Sequence record: MT446396.1
Direction: 5' to 3' (one strand)
Length of the DNA stretch: 64,000 nucleotides
From: Escherichia virus TH22
Below are positions 5,317 to 47,990 of the stretch, in pieces. The stretch's first letter is position 1, and every line of letters begins with the position of its first letter. The notes beneath the pieces are model-generated. The model did not search any database. It had not been told where the DNA came from and worked only from the letters and a program-made list of their open reading frames with translations. Position numbers and translations under genes: made by a program.

Positions 5317-5808
5317 ATGAATATATTCGAAATGTTACGCATAGATGAAGGTTGTAAGTTGGATTTGTACCGTGACACCGAAGGCTTTTGGACCATCGGC
5401 ATCGGTCAATTGATAACTAAGAACCCATCGAAAGACGTTGCTCGCGCTGAGCTGGACAAATTAATGGGTCGTGTTTGCAACGGTAGGATTACCCAGATTG
5501 AAGCTGAAACCTTGTTTAACCGTTCAGTGGAAAAAGCTAAAGCCGGAATCTTGAAACATCCTGTCTTAAAACCTGTTTATGATGTACTGGATGAAGTTCG
5601 TCGTTGCGCACTCATTAATATGGTATTCCAAATGGGTGTAGCTGGTGTAGCTGGTTTTCCTAAGGGGCTGCGATTGCTCAAGGCTAAATCATGGGAAGCT
5701 GCTGCTAAGGAACTGGCTGACTCAAGATGGTATAAAGTCCAGACTCCGAACCGGGCCAAACGAGTTATTGAAACTTTCCGTACTGGAACTTTTGACGCAT
5801 ACAAATGA
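5317..5808 (+). CDS. e: lysozyme (endolysin) e
   Basis: 163 aa; [12 protein letters not shown]...GFWTIGIG matches T4 lysozyme nearly residue for residue over the N-terminus. Confidence 0.95.
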
Positions 5809-5864: not shown

Positions 5865-6281
5865 ATGACTCGCATTAATTTAACCCTGGTATCTGAACTT
5901 GCTGACCAACACCTTATGGCTGAATACCGTGAGCTTCCTCGCGTGTTTGGTGCTGTTCGTAAGCATGTGCAAAATGGTAAAAAGGTGTCTGACTTTAAAA
6001 TCCCATCATCTTTTCTTTTAGGAACTGGTCATGTCACCTTCTTTTATGATAAGCTTTTGTTCCTTAAAAACCGTCATCAAGAACTTATTGCTGAATGTTT
6101 AAAGCGAGGGTTTAATATAAAAGATATTTCTACCCAAGATTTAAATGATATTCCTGATGAATGGAAGAATGATTATCAACCATCAATCTGGTCAATTGAA
6201 ATCAGTCAATCCAGACTGAATGAGAAAATTTCTCAAAAGCCTACCTGGTACAAATACTATGGGAAAGCTGTGTACGCTTAA
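5865..6281 (+). CDS. denV: endonuclease V (pyrimidine dimer DNA glycosylase)
   Basis: 138 aa; [35 protein letters not shown] near-identical to T4 endo V. Confidence 0.95.
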
Positions 6282-6329: not shown

Positions 6330-6644
6330 ATGAAAACTTATCAAGAATTTATTACTGAATCTACTCAACAACGTGTTGAAGGTGGTTATGTCTGGATTGA
6401 ACAGTTAACCCCACCAAGTGAAACAAGCACTGGTTCGTGGAAAATTACTGTTGATGGTCCTGGTGGAAAACGCAAGACTATTAAAGAAATTAAAGGTTAT
6501 TATGACGAAGCTAAATCATGGGCTGGTAGTCATGTAATGCAGATTAAAATTGCAAACCCAGATAACGTTCATGCGGCAAAAGCGTTCCGTCGCATTGGTA
6601 ATAAACTTTATGATGCGTTTTTGCGCGATTTCCCTAAAGCTTAA
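6330..6644 (+). CDS. internal protein with capsid-targeting sequence
   Basis: N-terminus MKTYQEFITES matches T4 IP capsid-targeting sequence MKTYQEFIAE; track ORF starts 39 nt earlier. Confidence 0.7.
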   Translation: MKTYQEFITESTQQRVEGGYVWIEQLTPPSETSTGSWKITVDGPGGKRKTIKEIKGYYDEAKSWAGSHVMQIKIANPDNVHAAKAFRRIGNKLYDAFLRDFPKA

Positions 6645-6657
6645 CTAAAGAGCCATT

Positions 6658-6921
6658 ATGAAAACTTATCAAGAATTTATTACTGAATCCGCTAAAGCTC
6701 CTGCTGGTTCCTTTAAAGTCCGCGCCTTCGCTGGTGATGCTGAAGACTTTGGTACCATGAAGCGCAATGGTTATTCTTTCTTTGGCGGCGATGGCAAAGA
6801 AATTGTTACCTATGCAAAACGCCGCGAAATCGCATTTGTGGTTGCTGGTAAGAAAGTTGATGTTGACGATATTGAATGGGACTTTGAGACCTTTGGTATT
6901 GTTTCTGGCGGTAAAGCGTAA
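6658..6921 (+). CDS. internal protein with capsid-targeting sequence
   Basis: N-terminus MKTYQEFITESAKA; cargo domain unrelated to the neighbouring IP. Confidence 0.75.
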   Translation: MKTYQEFITESAKAPAGSFKVRAFAGDAEDFGTMKRNGYSFFGGDGKEIVTYAKRREIAFVVAGKKVDVDDIEWDFETFGIVSGGKA

Positions 6922-42247: not shown

Positions 42248-42581
42248 TATCGATTTATCTGATTTAGATAATTTCGAGAAAGATGCGGAGGGAGCTAAGG
42301 CTCCTTCTGTGCCTTACTACGAAAAAAGTTTGGAGATTATCCGGCAATCCATGGGAACCGTACGACAGGAAATTCTGTTATCACTCCCTGATGGGTCCAA
42401 TCACATTGTGTACGTAACCGGAATTAAAATTGAACCATCTGGAAAAGTTTCAGTTGATTTCGGCACCCCTTCTGAAGACCGCAAAGCGGAGCTTGCAGTG
42501 CATGTAGAAAAGTGTGTTACAATGCAAATACAAGATGAAATTGATAAGATTAAAATGAAAAAGAGGTGGTGGAAGTGGTAG
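42237..42581 (+). CDS. hypothetical protein (gene 40 position)
   Basis: ORF between uvsX and gene 41; called by synteny only. Confidence 0.4.
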   Translation: MMNDIDLSDLDNFEKDAEGAKAPSVPYYEKSLEIIRQSMGTVRQEILLSLPDGSNHIVYVTGIKIEPSGKVSVDFGTPSEDRKAELAVHVEKCVTMQIQDEIDKIKMKKRWWKW

Positions 42582-44005
42582 AAACTATTTTATCCCAGCT
42601 ACTCTTTAACAAGGAATATTTTGTTAAAGTCTGGCCATATCTGAATAGCACATATTTTGAAAAGGGTCCCGCGAAGACCCTTTTTAATACGATTAACGAA
42701 CACGTAAAAGAATATCAAGCTGTACCAACTAAGACTGCACTTGATATTGCACTTGACAACTCTGACCTTTCTGAAGTCGAATATGAAGGCACAAAGAAAC
42801 TTTTAGGAGTCCTGGCCGATACTCCAGAAGACCAGGAATGGTTGGTTAGAGAAACCGAAAAGTATGTACAGAAGTCTGCGATGTTCAATGCCACATCCAG
42901 GATTATCGAAATCCAGAGTAATGCCGAACTTCCTAAAGATAAACGTGATAAACGAATCCCGGATATCGGTGCTATCCCTGACATCATGCGTGATGCATTG
43001 TCCATCTGTTTTGATTCTGCCCTTGGTCATGACTGGTTAAACGATTACGAGGCTCGATTCCAGACTTATCTGAACAAATCGAAGAAAGTTCCGTTCCGCA
43101 TTAACATCCTGAATAAAATTACGAAAGGCGGGGTTGAGTACGGTACAGAGAACGTTTTACTAGCCGGGACGAATGTCGGTAAATCTCTGGGGCTTTGTTC
43201 GTTAGCGGCTGACTATCTTCAGACTGGTCATAACGTTCTTTATATAAGCATGGAAATGGCCGAAGAAGTATGTGCCAAACGTATTGATGCCAACTTGCTG
43301 GATGTATCTCTGGATGATATTGATGAAGGTCATATATCATGGGCGGAATATAAAGCTAAGATGGAAAAATGGCGTGCTTCCGGGACTCTCGGGACTCTGA
43401 AGATAAAACAATATCCAACTGGTGGTGCTCATGCGGATACCTTCCGTGCATTACTGAACGAGTACAAACTGAAGCAAGGGTTTGTACCGGATGTGATTAT
43501 TGTTGACTACCTGGCAATCTGTGCAAGCTCAAGACTGAAAACGTTTACCGAAAACAGTTACGGCCTGATTAAGATGGTTGCAGAAGAACTTCGTGGTCTG
43601 GCAGTTGAGAAAAATGTGGTCTTGTGGACTGCAGCGCAGACAACCAGGGGCGCGAACGTTGCAGCCGAGATTGATATGGCTGACATTGCAGAATCCTTTG
43701 GTATTGCTCACACGGCTGACTTTATGCTGGGTGTTGTTGAGACCGAAGAATTCGCTCAAATGGGGCTGCAGTTAATCAAACAGCTTAAGTCTCGTTATGG
43801 TGATAAGAACTACTATAATAAATTCAAGATGGGTGTTAAGAAAGGTAATCAGCGCTGGTATGAGGTTGATGATGATTCGGCTCCTAAACAAGGCCCTACG
43901 GTTAAAGAAGCCACCGGTGAGATGAATCGCCAGGCCGAAATGAATCGACAAACCAGGGTCAACAGGAGCGACCTGGATGACCTTGCTGCTCAAATGAAAT
44001 TTTAA
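42566..44005 (+). CDS. 41: replicative DNA helicase gp41 (DnaB-like)
   Basis: Walker A GTNVGKS; KQLKSRYGDKN; apparent GTG start overlapping upstream gene; matches T4 gp41. Confidence 0.95.
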   Translation: MVEVVETILSQLLFNKEYFVKVWPYLNSTYFEKGPAKTLFNTINEHVKEYQAVPTKTALDIALDNSDLSEVEYEGTKKLLGVLADTPEDQEWLVRETEKYVQKSAMFNATSRIIEIQSNAELPKDKRDKRIPDIGAIPDIMRDALSICFDSALGHDWLNDYEARFQTYLNKSKKVPFRINILNKITKGGVEYGTENVLLAGTNVGKSLGLCSLAADYLQTGHNVLYISMEMAEEVCAKRIDANLLDVSLDDIDEGHISWAEYKAKMEKWRASGTLGTLKIKQYPTGGAHADTFRALLNEYKLKQGFVPDVIIVDYLAICASSRLKTFTENSYGLIKMVAEELRGLAVEKNVVLWTAAQTTRGANVAAEIDMADIAESFGIAHTADFMLGVVETEEFAQMGLQLIKQLKSRYGDKNYYNKFKMGVKKGNQRWYEVDDDSAPKQGPTVKEATGEMNRQAEMNRQTRVNRSDLDDLAAQMKF

Positions 44006-44895: not shown

Positions 44896-45189
44896 ATGAA
44901 AAAGTTATTAATCGCGGCAATTCTTACCGTAGCATCATGTGGTACAGCTCCAGTTACTGCTGGACTTGATAAAAACCTTTGTGAGTGGTCTATGACTGCG
45001 GACCAAACTGATGTTGAAACTCAAATTCGCGCTGACATCATGAATATTACTAAACGTGACCGCCCTGATATGGTTAAAGAAGTATCTGACCAATTGACTT
45101 CTGGTGACGTTATGCAGTATAACTATGTTCTGTATTGCGATGCTTCATTTGACAATAGCAAAATTGTTCAATGGGTTACAGGTGAATAA
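44896..45189 (+). CDS. sp: Spackle periplasmic protein
   Basis: 97 aa with signal peptide; DKNLCEWSMTADQTDVETQIRADIMNITKRDRP...VMQYNYVLYCD matches T4 Sp. Confidence 0.85.
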   Translation: MKKLLIAAILTVASCGTAPVTAGLDKNLCEWSMTADQTDVETQIRADIMNITKRDRPDMVKEVSDQLTSGDVMQYNYVLYCDASFDNSKIVQWVTGE

Positions 45190-45190
45190 A

Positions 45191-45628
45191 ATGATTAACA
45201 GAAATTTGGTTATCAAAAAACTTCGTTGTAAAAATCCAAATGCGCAGGCATACAGGGTGTTTTGGAGCGACGAAATTCAATATCTGGGTTATTTTCTTGT
45301 TGATAGTGATGATAGAATTACGTTTGCTCATAAACTTCTTAACAAAGAATTAAACCATTGGAAAGAACTTATTGCAGTCAAGTCTAAATTATTTTCGCGC
45401 AATACAATGCACCAATTGGTTTATTTTTTCGCTGATGGTATTCCTGACAAGGTTGAGTTTGAAGGGTTTGAATTTAAAGACATCAACCCTGACAATGAAT
45501 TGAATGACAGTATTGTTAATATGGGTATCCCTGGCAAGTACATCAAAAACAGTCTTTTGAAAATTCTGGAAAATCCTGTTTATTCAGTTGACGACCAGAT
45601 TTTTAATGCCTTCATGAAGCGAGATTAG
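45191..45628 (+). CDS. hypothetical protein
   Basis: ATG 45191; C-terminal 11 aa DDQIFNAFMKR identical to next gene. Confidence 0.45.
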   Translation: MINRNLVIKKLRCKNPNAQAYRVFWSDEIQYLGYFLVDSDDRITFAHKLLNKELNHWKELIAVKSKLFSRNTMHQLVYFFADGIPDKVEFEGFEFKDINPDNELNDSIVNMGIPGKYIKNSLLKILENPVYSVDDQIFNAFMKRD

Positions 45629-45629
45629 T

Positions 45630-45989
45630 ATGAGTTATTATAATTTTCTGAATTTTGAACTGGTGAGCAATAATAATGGTAATGCTCACTATGAATTTCG
45701 TGAGCCCCGTTATAATCAGGCGATTGGTTATATCATCGTTAAAGATGGTGTTATCATAAAGGCTCGTTCGTTTATGACAATGAATGGGCCTTGTGAAGAT
45801 AATCGTGGTTATCCATTTGATAAAAAGAACGTACGCGATTGTGCAGTATGGATAACCGGAAACCCTGAAATTGGGGTCATGATATCTACTGAAGCAAATG
45901 ACATTCTGGAAGGGGCTTGGGTTAAAGCTCAAGAACCGCCTACTGATATTGATGACCAGATTTTTAATGCCTTCATGAAGCGAGGTTAA
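45630..45989 (+). CDS. hypothetical protein
   Basis: C-terminal DDQIFNAFMKRG, identical tail to upstream gene. Confidence 0.45.
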   Translation: MSYYNFLNFELVSNNNGNAHYEFREPRYNQAIGYIIVKDGVIIKARSFMTMNGPCEDNRGYPFDKKNVRDCAVWITGNPEIGVMISTEANDILEGAWVKAQEPPTDIDDQIFNAFMKRG

Positions 45990-46212: not shown

Positions 46213-46378
46213 GATTTCGGTCTTCCAGATTTTTGAAGAATATGAAATCGTGTCGCAAGACCAAGAAGCAATCCATGTTATCGCTGATGATGGTGTTACC
46301 TGGATTATTCCGTTGTATCATGAAGACACTTATGAAGTGACTGATGCAAATGGTGATAAAGCTATCTTCGTTGTATAA
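46187..46378 (+). CDS. hypothetical acidic protein
   Basis: 63-aa ORF overlapping upstream stop. Confidence 0.35.
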   Translation: MSAMCTGSKISVFQIFEEYEIVSQDQEAIHVIADDGVTWIIPLYHEDTYEVTDANGDKAIFVV

Positions 46379-46397
46379 ATAGCGGAAAGGGGGTGTT

Positions 46398-46565
46398 ATG
46401 AAAACATTCAAAGATTTTATCAACGAAGATATGGCTGCCGGTGATGCAGGTGGAAACCCAACTAATATCGCAACAGGTACCACTTCCGGGGCAGTTGTCA
46501 ATAAAGGCCCTGAACAAATCCCATCAAAAAAGCGTAAGAATAAAGACGATAAACCTACAGTATAA
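46398..46565 (+). CDS. hypothetical small protein with CTS-like N-terminus
   Basis: 55 aa; N-terminus MKTFKDFINED resembles internal-protein capsid-targeting sequence; SD GGAAAGGGGG. Confidence 0.4.
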   Translation: MKTFKDFINEDMAAGDAGGNPTNIATGTTSGAVVNKGPEQIPSKKRKNKDDKPTV

Positions 46566-46597
46566 TGGTCCTTCGGGGCCATTGAAATGAGGAAACT

Positions 46598-47626
46598 ATG
46601 TCATATATTGATAGAGAATTTGCAGTCAGAGCTTTATCGTATCAACCACGTTATAGAGAAGTCACCGGGAGCACATTTAAGGCAAACTGTCGTTGCAAGG
46701 TTTGTGGTGACTCCCAGAAAGATTCGCACAAGGCTCGATTCTGGGCGTATACCAATCCGTCTGATGGTGCGGTTTACGTGAAATGTTTTAACTGTGACTA
46801 CTCCACGCATATAAGCAAATACATAAAAGAGTTTGAGCCGGATTTGCACCGGGAATATATGGTTGAGAAGTACAAGGAAAACGCCTTCGGTCGACAACGT
46901 AATGAAGTTGCAGAAGCTCCGAAAGAACAAGAAAAAACTCCGGTTATTGAAGAGCTTGCTTTTTGCGAAAGAATCGATACTTTACCAGAAGCGCATCCGA
47001 TAGTTAAGTATGTGAAAAGTCGGTGTATTCCGAGCAATGTTTGGAACCGGTTATGGTTTACAAACAAATGGCCTGCATTAGTTAACTCCGTTAATCCTGG
47101 GACGTATAAGAATGAAACGAATGAACCACGCTTGGTTATTCCTATCTTCAACGGCAAAAAAGAAATCGAATCTTTCCAAGGACGAGCTCTTCGCAAAGAT
47201 GCACCACAAAAATATATCACAATCAAAGCTCACCCAGAAGCTTCCAAAGTCTATGGCGTAGACAAGATTGATGAGCGCAAGCGCGTGTGGGTAATGGAAG
47301 GTCCGATTGATAGTTTGTTTATCCCTAACAGCATTGCGATAACCGGTGGAACATTAGCATTGGAAGCCGTTCCTTATGCTGAAACCCGAGTATGGGTAAT
47401 GGACAACGAGCCAAGACATCCGGATACGATTAAACGTATGAAGAAGCTCGTTGAAGCGGGTGAAGCCGTTATGTTCTGGGACAATGCACCATGGCATACG
47501 AAAGACATAAATGAGATGGTTAAATCGGAGGGCGCAACCCCTGAACAAATCGAATCATATATGGCCGATAACATTGCTCAAGGGTTGATGGCGAGAATGC
47601 GACTTTCGAAGTACGCAAAAGTTTAG
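46598..47626 (+). CDS. 61: DNA primase gp61
   Basis: 342 aa; N-terminal zinc-binding region CRCKVCGDS...CFNC and Toprim-like core; matches T4 gp61. Confidence 0.95.
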   Translation: MSYIDREFAVRALSYQPRYREVTGSTFKANCRCKVCGDSQKDSHKARFWAYTNPSDGAVYVKCFNCDYSTHISKYIKEFEPDLHREYMVEKYKENAFGRQRNEVAEAPKEQEKTPVIEELAFCERIDTLPEAHPIVKYVKSRCIPSNVWNRLWFTNKWPALVNSVNPGTYKNETNEPRLVIPIFNGKKEIESFQGRALRKDAPQKYITIKAHPEASKVYGVDKIDERKRVWVMEGPIDSLFIPNSIAITGGTLALEAVPYAETRVWVMDNEPRHPDTIKRMKKLVEAGEAVMFWDNAPWHTKDINEMVKSEGATPEQIESYMADNIAQGLMARMRLSKYAKV

Positions 47627-47747
47627 GAAGGGATTCCGGTAAGTTCCACAGAAAAACATCAAGAGCTAAAAAGCCCATGATGTTTCTTGTCTTTCTTACT
47701 GGTTAATTTCCAAATCCGATGGAATAATATTCACATTATTCCATCTA

Positions 47748-47942
47748 TATAAGGCCGATTAATGCCAGTAAAATATCTACAACTGATTCGAGTGCAATGA
47801 CTGGTAATATAACACCATGTGTCAATGCAACAGGGGCAACAACGAAGTTCCAGAGTAGAACTAAACAGAGTATCGAAAGGACCAGAATCGTTCGCTTACG
47901 ACTGCCTTTGATGGCTTGAATTAGACTAGATAGTTTGAGCAT
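47748..47942 (-). CDS. hypothetical small hydrophobic protein
   Basis: Only non-overlapped minus-strand ORF; ATG preceded by AAGGAGG; two hydrophobic segments. Confidence 0.45.
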
Positions 47943-47961
47943 ATATCCTCCTTCCGTGTAT

Positions 47962-47990
47962 TTATGCTTCAAACCAATATGATATAATTA
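47962..47990 (+). promoter_or_regulatory. middle promoter (MotA box) upstream of gene 56
   Basis: TATGCTTCA MotA-box-like about 12 bp upstream of TATAAT. Confidence 0.5.

Follow-up and report, generated by a model that had tools for sequence, protein, structure and literature searches.

What is encoded by the 55-codon reading frame that directly precedes the primase gene of a T4-like Escherichia phage, and whose product begins much like the capsid-targeting sequence (CTS) of the internal proteins? We addressed this question in a 64,000-nucleotide stretch of DNA from Escherichia virus TH22 (MT446396.1), referred to below as the window. The original prediction for this locus had described a mini-protein with a CTS-like N-terminus, a Gly/Thr-rich remainder and a basic tail, possibly a very small packaged peptide. 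Read directly from the sequence, the frame lies on the plus strand at 46398..46565, with the start codon ATG at 46398 and the stop codon TAA at 46563-46565, and its translation of 55 residues is MKTFKDFINEDMAAGDAGGNPTNIATGTTSGAVVNKGPEQIPSKKRKNKDDKPTV. Coordinates and translation agree exactly with the prediction, as does the position directly 5' of the primase gene. A Shine-Dalgarno-like sequence, AAAGGGGGTG (46386..46395, plus strand; also read directly), ends 2 nt 5' of the ATG. The conserved downstream neighbour, gene 61 encoding a DNA primase of 342 residues (46598..47626, plus strand), is considered here as context only and lies outside the element. The Gly/Thr-rich middle and a Lys/Arg cluster are both present in the sequence. 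For the basic tail, the cluster stands, but the extreme C-terminus is acidic or basic depending on the phage, the T4 protein ending in KKKKEESKEKEE.

The window region is 100% identical to that of Escherichia virus TH55, a T4-like phage (Gaprivervirus), and 99.9% identical to that of phage UPEC07 (genus Gaprivervirus, VR7/SP18 group); the 55-residue protein itself is 100% identical in both. In PHROGs, the protein was assigned to phrog_1823, for which no function is given there (E 1.5e-31, residues 1-52). Its T4 ortholog is the product of gene 61.1 (NP_049649, 'hypothetical protein'; MKTFKEFIKEDMVAGDSGGNPENISIGTTSGAVVNKGPEQIPKKKKEESKEKEE). The two proteins have equal length and approximately 70% identity, and the leader, a central module and a charged tail are common to both. 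The order of gene 41 (42566-44005), 61.1 and gene 61 in the window is identical to that in T4, with 61.1 placed in both between small ORFs on the gene 41 side and the primase gene; in T4 its immediate neighbours are 61.2 and gene 61. A comparison with orthologous loci of related phages, proposed along with the original prediction, was made by tblastn against 50,697 phage records; hundreds of T4-like genomes contain the protein, which is annotated as gp61.1 in VR7, SP18 and others. The gene was found directly 5' of gene 61 in every Straboviridae genome examined. Scans of Pfam and NCBIfam with the short and long forms of the protein (see below) gave no matches, and the literature searched records no function for T4 gp61.1, which appears in gene lists only. 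Gene 61.1 itself is thus already known, and named without an assigned function. Within the module, non-synonymous differences among short-form orthologs amounted to 0.06-0.19 per site, against saturated synonymous differences of 0.54-0.78. As the former are much smaller than the latter, 61.1 is a true gene under strong purifying selection. Elsewhere in this cluster, two adjacent plus-strand ORFs (45104-45628 and 45630-45989) both have the C-terminal sequence DDQIFNAFMKR[D/G]. This end is the C-terminal motif of T4 gp61.2 (DDQIFNAFMNRG), and the two ORFs resemble tandem 61.2-like paralogues.

The primary structure of the N-terminus was compared with those of the internal proteins. Residues 1-10, MKTFKDFINE (46398..46427, plus strand), form the CTS-like leader, predicted from a pattern scan, the alignment with gp23 and motif conservation to be cut by the protease gp21 after Glu10. 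A strict leader pattern, MK[TS][FYW]x[DEQ][FYLI][ILV]xE, was scanned in six frames over the 64-kb window and gave three matches only, every one at an ORF start. These were 61.1 and the internal-protein-like genes at 6330 and 6658, both of which begin with MKTYQEFITE; the likeness to a CTS is therefore specific. Compared with MKTYQEFITE, the 61.1 leader has six of ten residues identical and three conservatively replaced. At the DNA level, just 22 of 30 bases match, and recent recombination with the internal-protein leaders was therefore rejected. The CTS of IPII and IPIII from T4, approximately ten residues removed by gp21, is likewise N-terminal, starts with MKT-aromatic and ends in [IL]-x-E, as does the 61.1 leader. 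CTS function has been described (PMC9958956, PMC3012670), and the internal proteins are a highly diverse set to which the leader alone is common (PMC3012670). What follows the leader differs: a variable folded protein in the internal proteins, and in 61.1 a 45-residue peptide conserved across genera. The loci also differ, that of the internal proteins being situated at 6330-6921, beside e and denV. The two internal-protein-like genes there occupy 6330-6644 and 6658-6921 (plus strand; 104 and 87 residues counted from MKTYQEFITE), just 3' of the e lysozyme gene (5317-5808) and a denV-like gene (5865-6281). Between the two internal-protein-like genes, the 30-nt leader is identical and the bodies are unrelated.

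Several public records name the 61.1 product 'major capsid domain-containing protein', and we therefore compared it directly with the major capsid protein gp23. BLASTP of the 55-residue protein against UPEC07 gp23 aligned residues 2-46 with gp23 55-99 (19 identities in 45 positions, E 5e-9), and T4 gp61.1 matched T4 gp23 with an E value of 6e-9. When a profile of 14 short forms was compared with a profile of six gp23 N-termini using hhalign, 61.1 residues 2-46 aligned with T4 gp23 57-101 (97.5% probability, E 7e-12). An HMM of the module, applied to six-frame ORFs of the window and of two T4 loci, matched only 61.1 and gp23 (T4 gp23 at 3.7e-11); gp24, whose first 226 residues were included, gave no match. 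PDB sequence matches to the module were T4 gp23 chains only. The pattern common to gp23 and 61.1 is F..F[LI]xE/..[GA]GD.G....NI[AS].G.[TS][ST]GA[VI]...GP (the slash marks the cut), and a fixed difference between the families is HGY in gp23 against GGN/S in 61.1. Judged from these alignments, residues 2-46 of 61.1 are a paralogue of gp23. Residues 11-38 (DMAAGDAGGNPTNIATGTTSGAVVNKGP; 46428..46511, plus strand) correspond to gp23* 66-93, which comprise the N-fist together with the first part of the N-arm. Residues 39-55 (EQIPSKKRKNKDDKPTV; 46512..46562, plus strand) contain the Lys/Arg cluster, the start of which aligns with gp23 VRR (99-101), and a variable charged tail.

The region of gp23 concerned, residues 57-101 (PDB 6UZC, 7VS5, 5VF3), comprises the end of the propeptide, the gp21 cut site, the N-fist and the start of the N-arm. 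In the unexpanded prohead this segment is disordered and inside the shell, next to the scaffolding core and probably touching it, and the N-terminus of gp23*, consisting of the 25-residue N-fist and the N-arm start, is externalised upon expansion (PMC9958956, PMC9546572). The region contacts four subunits, is part of the Soc site and includes the positions of the head-length mutations A66D, A94V and G97S (PMC9958956, PMC9546572). Only 45 residues align, and gp23 has an HK97 fold whose body (A and P domains) is absent from 61.1. The 61.1 product therefore cannot be a capsid subunit, and the database name overstates its relationship to gp23. We also compared the 36-residue module of 61.1 from five phages with six gp23 sequences, their own included. 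All pairs had 14-19 identities in 36 positions, with no excess towards the gp23 of the same phage, and there was thus no sign of co-evolution or recent gene conversion. By this comparison the paralogy is old, each copy having been conserved independently.

In both the BLASTP and the profile alignments, Glu10 of 61.1 falls on Glu65 of gp23, placing the predicted cut of 61.1 in the same register as that of gp23. gp21 prefers Leu/Ile-x-Glu immediately before the cut. Residues 8-10 of the 55-residue protein are Ile-Asn-Glu, consistent with LTE65 in gp23 and LRE10 in gp24. Processing by the prohead protease shortens gp23 by 65 and gp24 by 10 residues, and takes short peptides off the N-termini of the internal proteins (PMC9958956). 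The sequences at the cuts are FLTE/AEIGG in gp23 and ELLRE/S in gp24, and the corresponding sequences in the window are EFITE/S in the internal-protein leaders and DFINE/DMAAG in the mini-protein. Glu10 is invariant in the short forms. Throughout the module-bearing relatives collected (134 of 134), a motif [L/I/M/V, one C]-x-Glu is present 0 or 1 residue before the module, which starts with M(V/I)AGD; the first residue of the motif is Leu in 109 and Ile in 13 of them.

Relatives of 61.1 have two architectures. The short form, with 51-62 residues, was found in Tequatrovirus, Gaprivervirus, Dhakavirus, Jiaodavirus and Kanagawavirus as well as in an RB49-like phage, where it is unannotated. The long form, with 135-165 residues (phrog_2086), was found in RB69-like, Gelderlandvirus, Karamvirus and Tegunavirus phages, and also in RB43-like, Acinetobacter, Aeromonas and KVP40-like phages. 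Loci fetched from divergent phages place both forms directly 5' of the primase gene. The long form consists of a conserved N-terminal domain of approximately 100 residues in place of the CTS-like leader, followed by hydrophobic-x-Glu, the module M(V/I)AGD...NIA.G.T.GA...GP and a KKRKR cluster; gp23-like module, cleavage motif, basic cluster and position before the primase gene are thus as in 61.1. The long-form profile aligned with gp23 over residues 53-100 only (97%, E 9e-11), and in this profile comparison the N-terminal domain displayed no resemblance to the gp23 propeptide. AlphaFold2 predicted, with moderate confidence, a helical N-terminal domain (pLDDT 76-88 over residues 10-70) and a disordered module (residues 107-146 of the long-form protein P0016, predicted to be disordered alone). 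A Foldseek search of the PDB with the long-form model gave no match with an E value below 4. An HMM of the N-terminal domain gave no match in the window or in the two T4 loci examined; a splitting-off of the domain from the short form was therefore rejected in favour of its loss. What stays constant between the two forms is the cleavage motif together with the gp23-like module and the basic cluster, and the short form seems to be derived, with a 10-residue leader substituted for the 100-residue domain.

A profile search of 1.84 billion representative sequences with the N-terminal domain gave 1830 matches, 598 of them with E values below 1e-10. Many of the matched proteins have 170-490 residues and aligned over this domain only. 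Such proteins fall in phrog_18642 and include one from Pelagibacter phage HTVC008M (L021:4001-4606), encoded 3.3 kb upstream of the primase gene. The domain family is large and uncharacterised (1830 representative clusters; phrog_2086 and phrog_18642), is joined to various C-terminal domains and extends into marine T4-like phages. Both the long form and phrog_18642 differ from 61.1 in this additional helical domain, and the marine phrog_18642 relatives have other C-terminal domains, often without a clear gp23-like module.

The mini-protein reading of the original prediction is thus upheld as far as its leader is concerned. It had not recognised the protein as the product of the known T4 gene 61.1, the paralogy of its Gly/Thr-rich part with the gp23* N-fist and N-arm, or the many relatives that carry the 100-residue domain instead of the leader. 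The final Glu of that leader falls at the gp21 maturation cut as positioned by the gp23 alignment, with hydrophobic-x-Glu invariant in the family.

We examined the locus for expression signals. A T4-type late-promoter motif, TATAAATA (46374..46381, plus strand), is situated 16 nt before the ATG and overlaps the stop codon of an upstream 63-residue ORF. In the window, NATAAATA occurs six times on the plus strand and once on the minus strand. All six plus-strand occurrences are followed by an ORF start within 16-39 nt, namely those of e lysozyme (5289), a 114-residue signal-peptide ORF (11803), a gp49-like endonuclease VII (22853), 61.1 (46374), a soc-like gene (48549) and a 50-residue ORF (60444). 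The minus-strand occurrence (47959) is at the start of a 75-residue membrane-like ORF (47745-47972). Lysozyme, gene 49 and soc are expressed late in T4. NATAAATA is also present 5' of 61.1 in Dhakavirus, Jiaodavirus, Acinetobacter KARL-1 and Yersinia TG1, and with one mismatch in RB69-like and S16-like phages. On the 3' side, a stem-loop with a UUCG loop (46563..46584, plus strand; fold -13.7 kcal/mol, z -2.1) overlaps the stop codon and has no T-run. A scan of the locus for sigma-70 promoters and terminators gave nothing decisive, and this hairpin was not scored as a terminator. In most lineages a hairpin is present at the corresponding place, with a proper terminator including a T-run in PEi26 and KARL-1. 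T4 61.1 differs in having neither flanking element; in the T4 locus examined, no NATAAATA was found upstream of the gene. Between 61.1 and the primase gene, many lineages (loci L004, L005, L008, L009 and L017-L020) contain a TATAAT-like hexamer and, after it, a GC-rich hairpin, which may act as a terminator, stabilise the RNA or belong to a gene 61 promoter.

Taking these results into account, we consider, with a probability of roughly 45%, that 61.1 encodes a gp21-processed, prohead-associated peptide that mimics the N-terminus of gp23*. The orthology with T4 61.1 and the strong purifying selection fit this reading. The CTS-like leader, the register of Glu10, the invariant cleavage motif and the late-promoter motif are consistent with a processed peptide targeted to the prohead. 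Synthesis of the protein, a step that is partly shown, would draw on early transcripts that read through into 61.1 and, in this phage, also on a late promoter belonging to the gene. The CTS-like leader, the gp23-like segment or both would then take it into the assembling prohead, where the equivalent segment of gp23 is located. There, gp21 would cut behind Glu10, in the way that gp23 is processed at Glu65 and the internal proteins at the end of their leaders; this step is predicted from the alignment and the conservation of the motif. The product would start at residue 11 (DMAAGDAGGNPTNIATG... here, DMVAGDSGGNPENISIG... in T4) and would be a 45-residue look-alike of the gp23* N-terminus, with N-fist and start of the N-arm, followed by the Lys/Arg cluster. 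Speculatively, it might bind the partners of the gp23* N-terminus (the scaffold or protease prior to cleavage, and adjacent capsomers once expansion has taken place) and thereby modulate head assembly or form a minor part of the head. In the long-form relatives, the corresponding cut would release a helical N-terminal domain of approximately 105 residues. The predicted behaviour is of a known kind, that of a prohead component processed by gp21; the unusual part would be the cargo, a copy of the capsid protein's own N-terminus.

Several points count against a processed prohead peptide. A whole-cell proteome of T4 did not include gp61.1, and the 61.1 transcript was assigned there to the early class (PMC9697503, Table S2), although the transcript class by itself is no argument against a role in the head, since the ipII, ipIII and gene 40 transcripts are likewise classed as early (PMC9697503, Table S2). 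The late-promoter motif is absent 5' of T4 61.1, and the gene lies within the replication cluster, its linkage to primase being conserved. For high-resolution T4 capsids, no extra peptide is mentioned in the reviews and structure papers searched (PMC9958956, PMC9546572), and the small products of cleavage are believed to escape from the prohead (PMC9958956). In addition, because the long forms lack a CTS-like N-terminus, the likeness of the leader may be convergent, or simply a reflection of the protease site. A more specific proposal, that the peptide acts in trans as an N-fist copy in capsid sites without a donor, or as a competitor for the scaffold that tunes capsid length or expansion, seems doubtful to us. 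Sites without a donor could be, for example, those in hexamers facing gp24 pentamers or the portal, and would be filled after gp21 cleavage. If either were true, 61.1 would represent an unrecognised, near-universal head component of T4-type phages, structural or regulatory, encoded in the replication cluster.

The main alternative, less probable than a processed prohead peptide and still a serious one, is that 61.1 is never packaged and acts in the cytoplasm as a mimic or decoy of the nascent gp23 N-terminus, competing for a partner that recognises residues ~57-101. The partner could be the scaffold gp22, the protease gp21, a chaperone, EF-Tu or another translation factor, or a host immune sensor of capsid protein; competition would tune assembly or blunt a defence. 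In agreement with this proposal, the module is conserved and paralogous to a segment of gp23 that has several partners, and 61.1 of T4 is transcribed early, ahead of the appearance of gp23. The module counterpart in the long form is predicted to be disordered, as expected of a competitor peptide. A simple decoy, however, requires neither an invariant hydrophobic-x-Glu nor a CTS-like leader, and 61.1 displays no excess similarity to the gp23 of its own phage. With respect to EF-Tu, approximately 100 residues from the first quarter of gp23 bind the factor more stably than the 29-residue Gol core (PMC3014915), which would favour a decoy. On the other hand, Gol, the gp23 peptide that activates the Lit protease, is described as the most conserved part of gp23 (PMC3014915), which in our alignment would place it at ~92-116, mostly past the shared module; at these positions, with Gol placed by conservation only, 61.1 has already diverged into its basic tail. 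The conservation of the family in Acinetobacter, Aeromonas and Vibrio phages also argues against a host-specific defence such as Lit.

The gene order raises the possibility that 61.1 is an accessory of the primase or helicase, with the Lys/Arg cluster binding DNA or gp61 and the likeness to gp23 a mere relic. Besides the position immediately 5' of gene 61 throughout the Straboviridae genomes examined, the relative in Pelagibacter phage HTVC008M is encoded within 3.3 kb of the primase gene, and the T4 transcript is early. We nevertheless regard a replication role, suggested by synteny, as unlikely. In most lineages a hairpin or terminator separates 61.1 from gene 61, and here and in several other lineages the late-promoter motif points to a promoter of its own. 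The conserved residues are exactly those in common with gp23, the protease site included, and profile scans found no similarity to any replication protein family.

Still less probable is that 61.1 encodes a classic internal protein, that is, an injected cargo targeted by its leader and countering a host nuclease, as IPI does. Its CTS-like leader and its small, charged product would suit such a protein. Internal proteins, however, are diverse (PMC3012670), whereas 61.1 is conserved from E. coli phages to Acinetobacter phages and is situated outside the internal-protein locus (6330-6921), and cleavage would leave just a disordered peptide of 45 residues. Finally, a spurious or decaying ORF with a chance resemblance, a reading to which the very small size and the lack of Pfam and NCBIfam matches might lend colour, is refuted by conservation: orthologs occur in hundreds of genomes with dN much smaller than dS, and the matches to phrog_1823 (E 1.5e-31) and the gp23 profile (E 7e-12) are strong.

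T4 head assembly is among the best-studied assembly pathways, and the recruitment of proteins to the scaffolding core is still called mysterious (PMC9958956). Here, a near-universal small gene of T4-like phages copies the cleavage site and N-fist of the capsid protein, and does so in two architectures. It provides a handle on recognition by the protease and the core, on the binding partners of the gp23 N-terminus and on a possible overlooked head peptide. On three points, namely how 61.1 relates to the cleavage site and N-fist of gp23, the conservation of the protease motif, and the dichotomy of long and short forms, the literature searched contained nothing beyond automated names.

The results also correct misleading database names such as 'major capsid protein'. 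Public records name 61.1 inconsistently, as 'major capsid protein', 'major capsid domain-containing protein', 'exonuclease' or 'methyltransferase'. In Escherichia phage UPWr_E1 (PP418985), a short-form 61.1 (MIGFKQFVEENKLKEDMTAGDAGGNPEKIAAGETSGSITNRGP...; L011:1201-1374) is unannotated, and two CDS overlap its ends. The long form of Cronobacter phage Pet-CM3-4 (L009:940-1347) is annotated from an internal Met, and the in-frame upstream sequence encodes the conserved start MSTIKSSIDAVYAYKFIRL. In phage 04086, the CDS immediately 3' of 61.1, the position taken by primase in all the other genomes examined, is labelled thymidylate synthase, an observation that concerns the label only.
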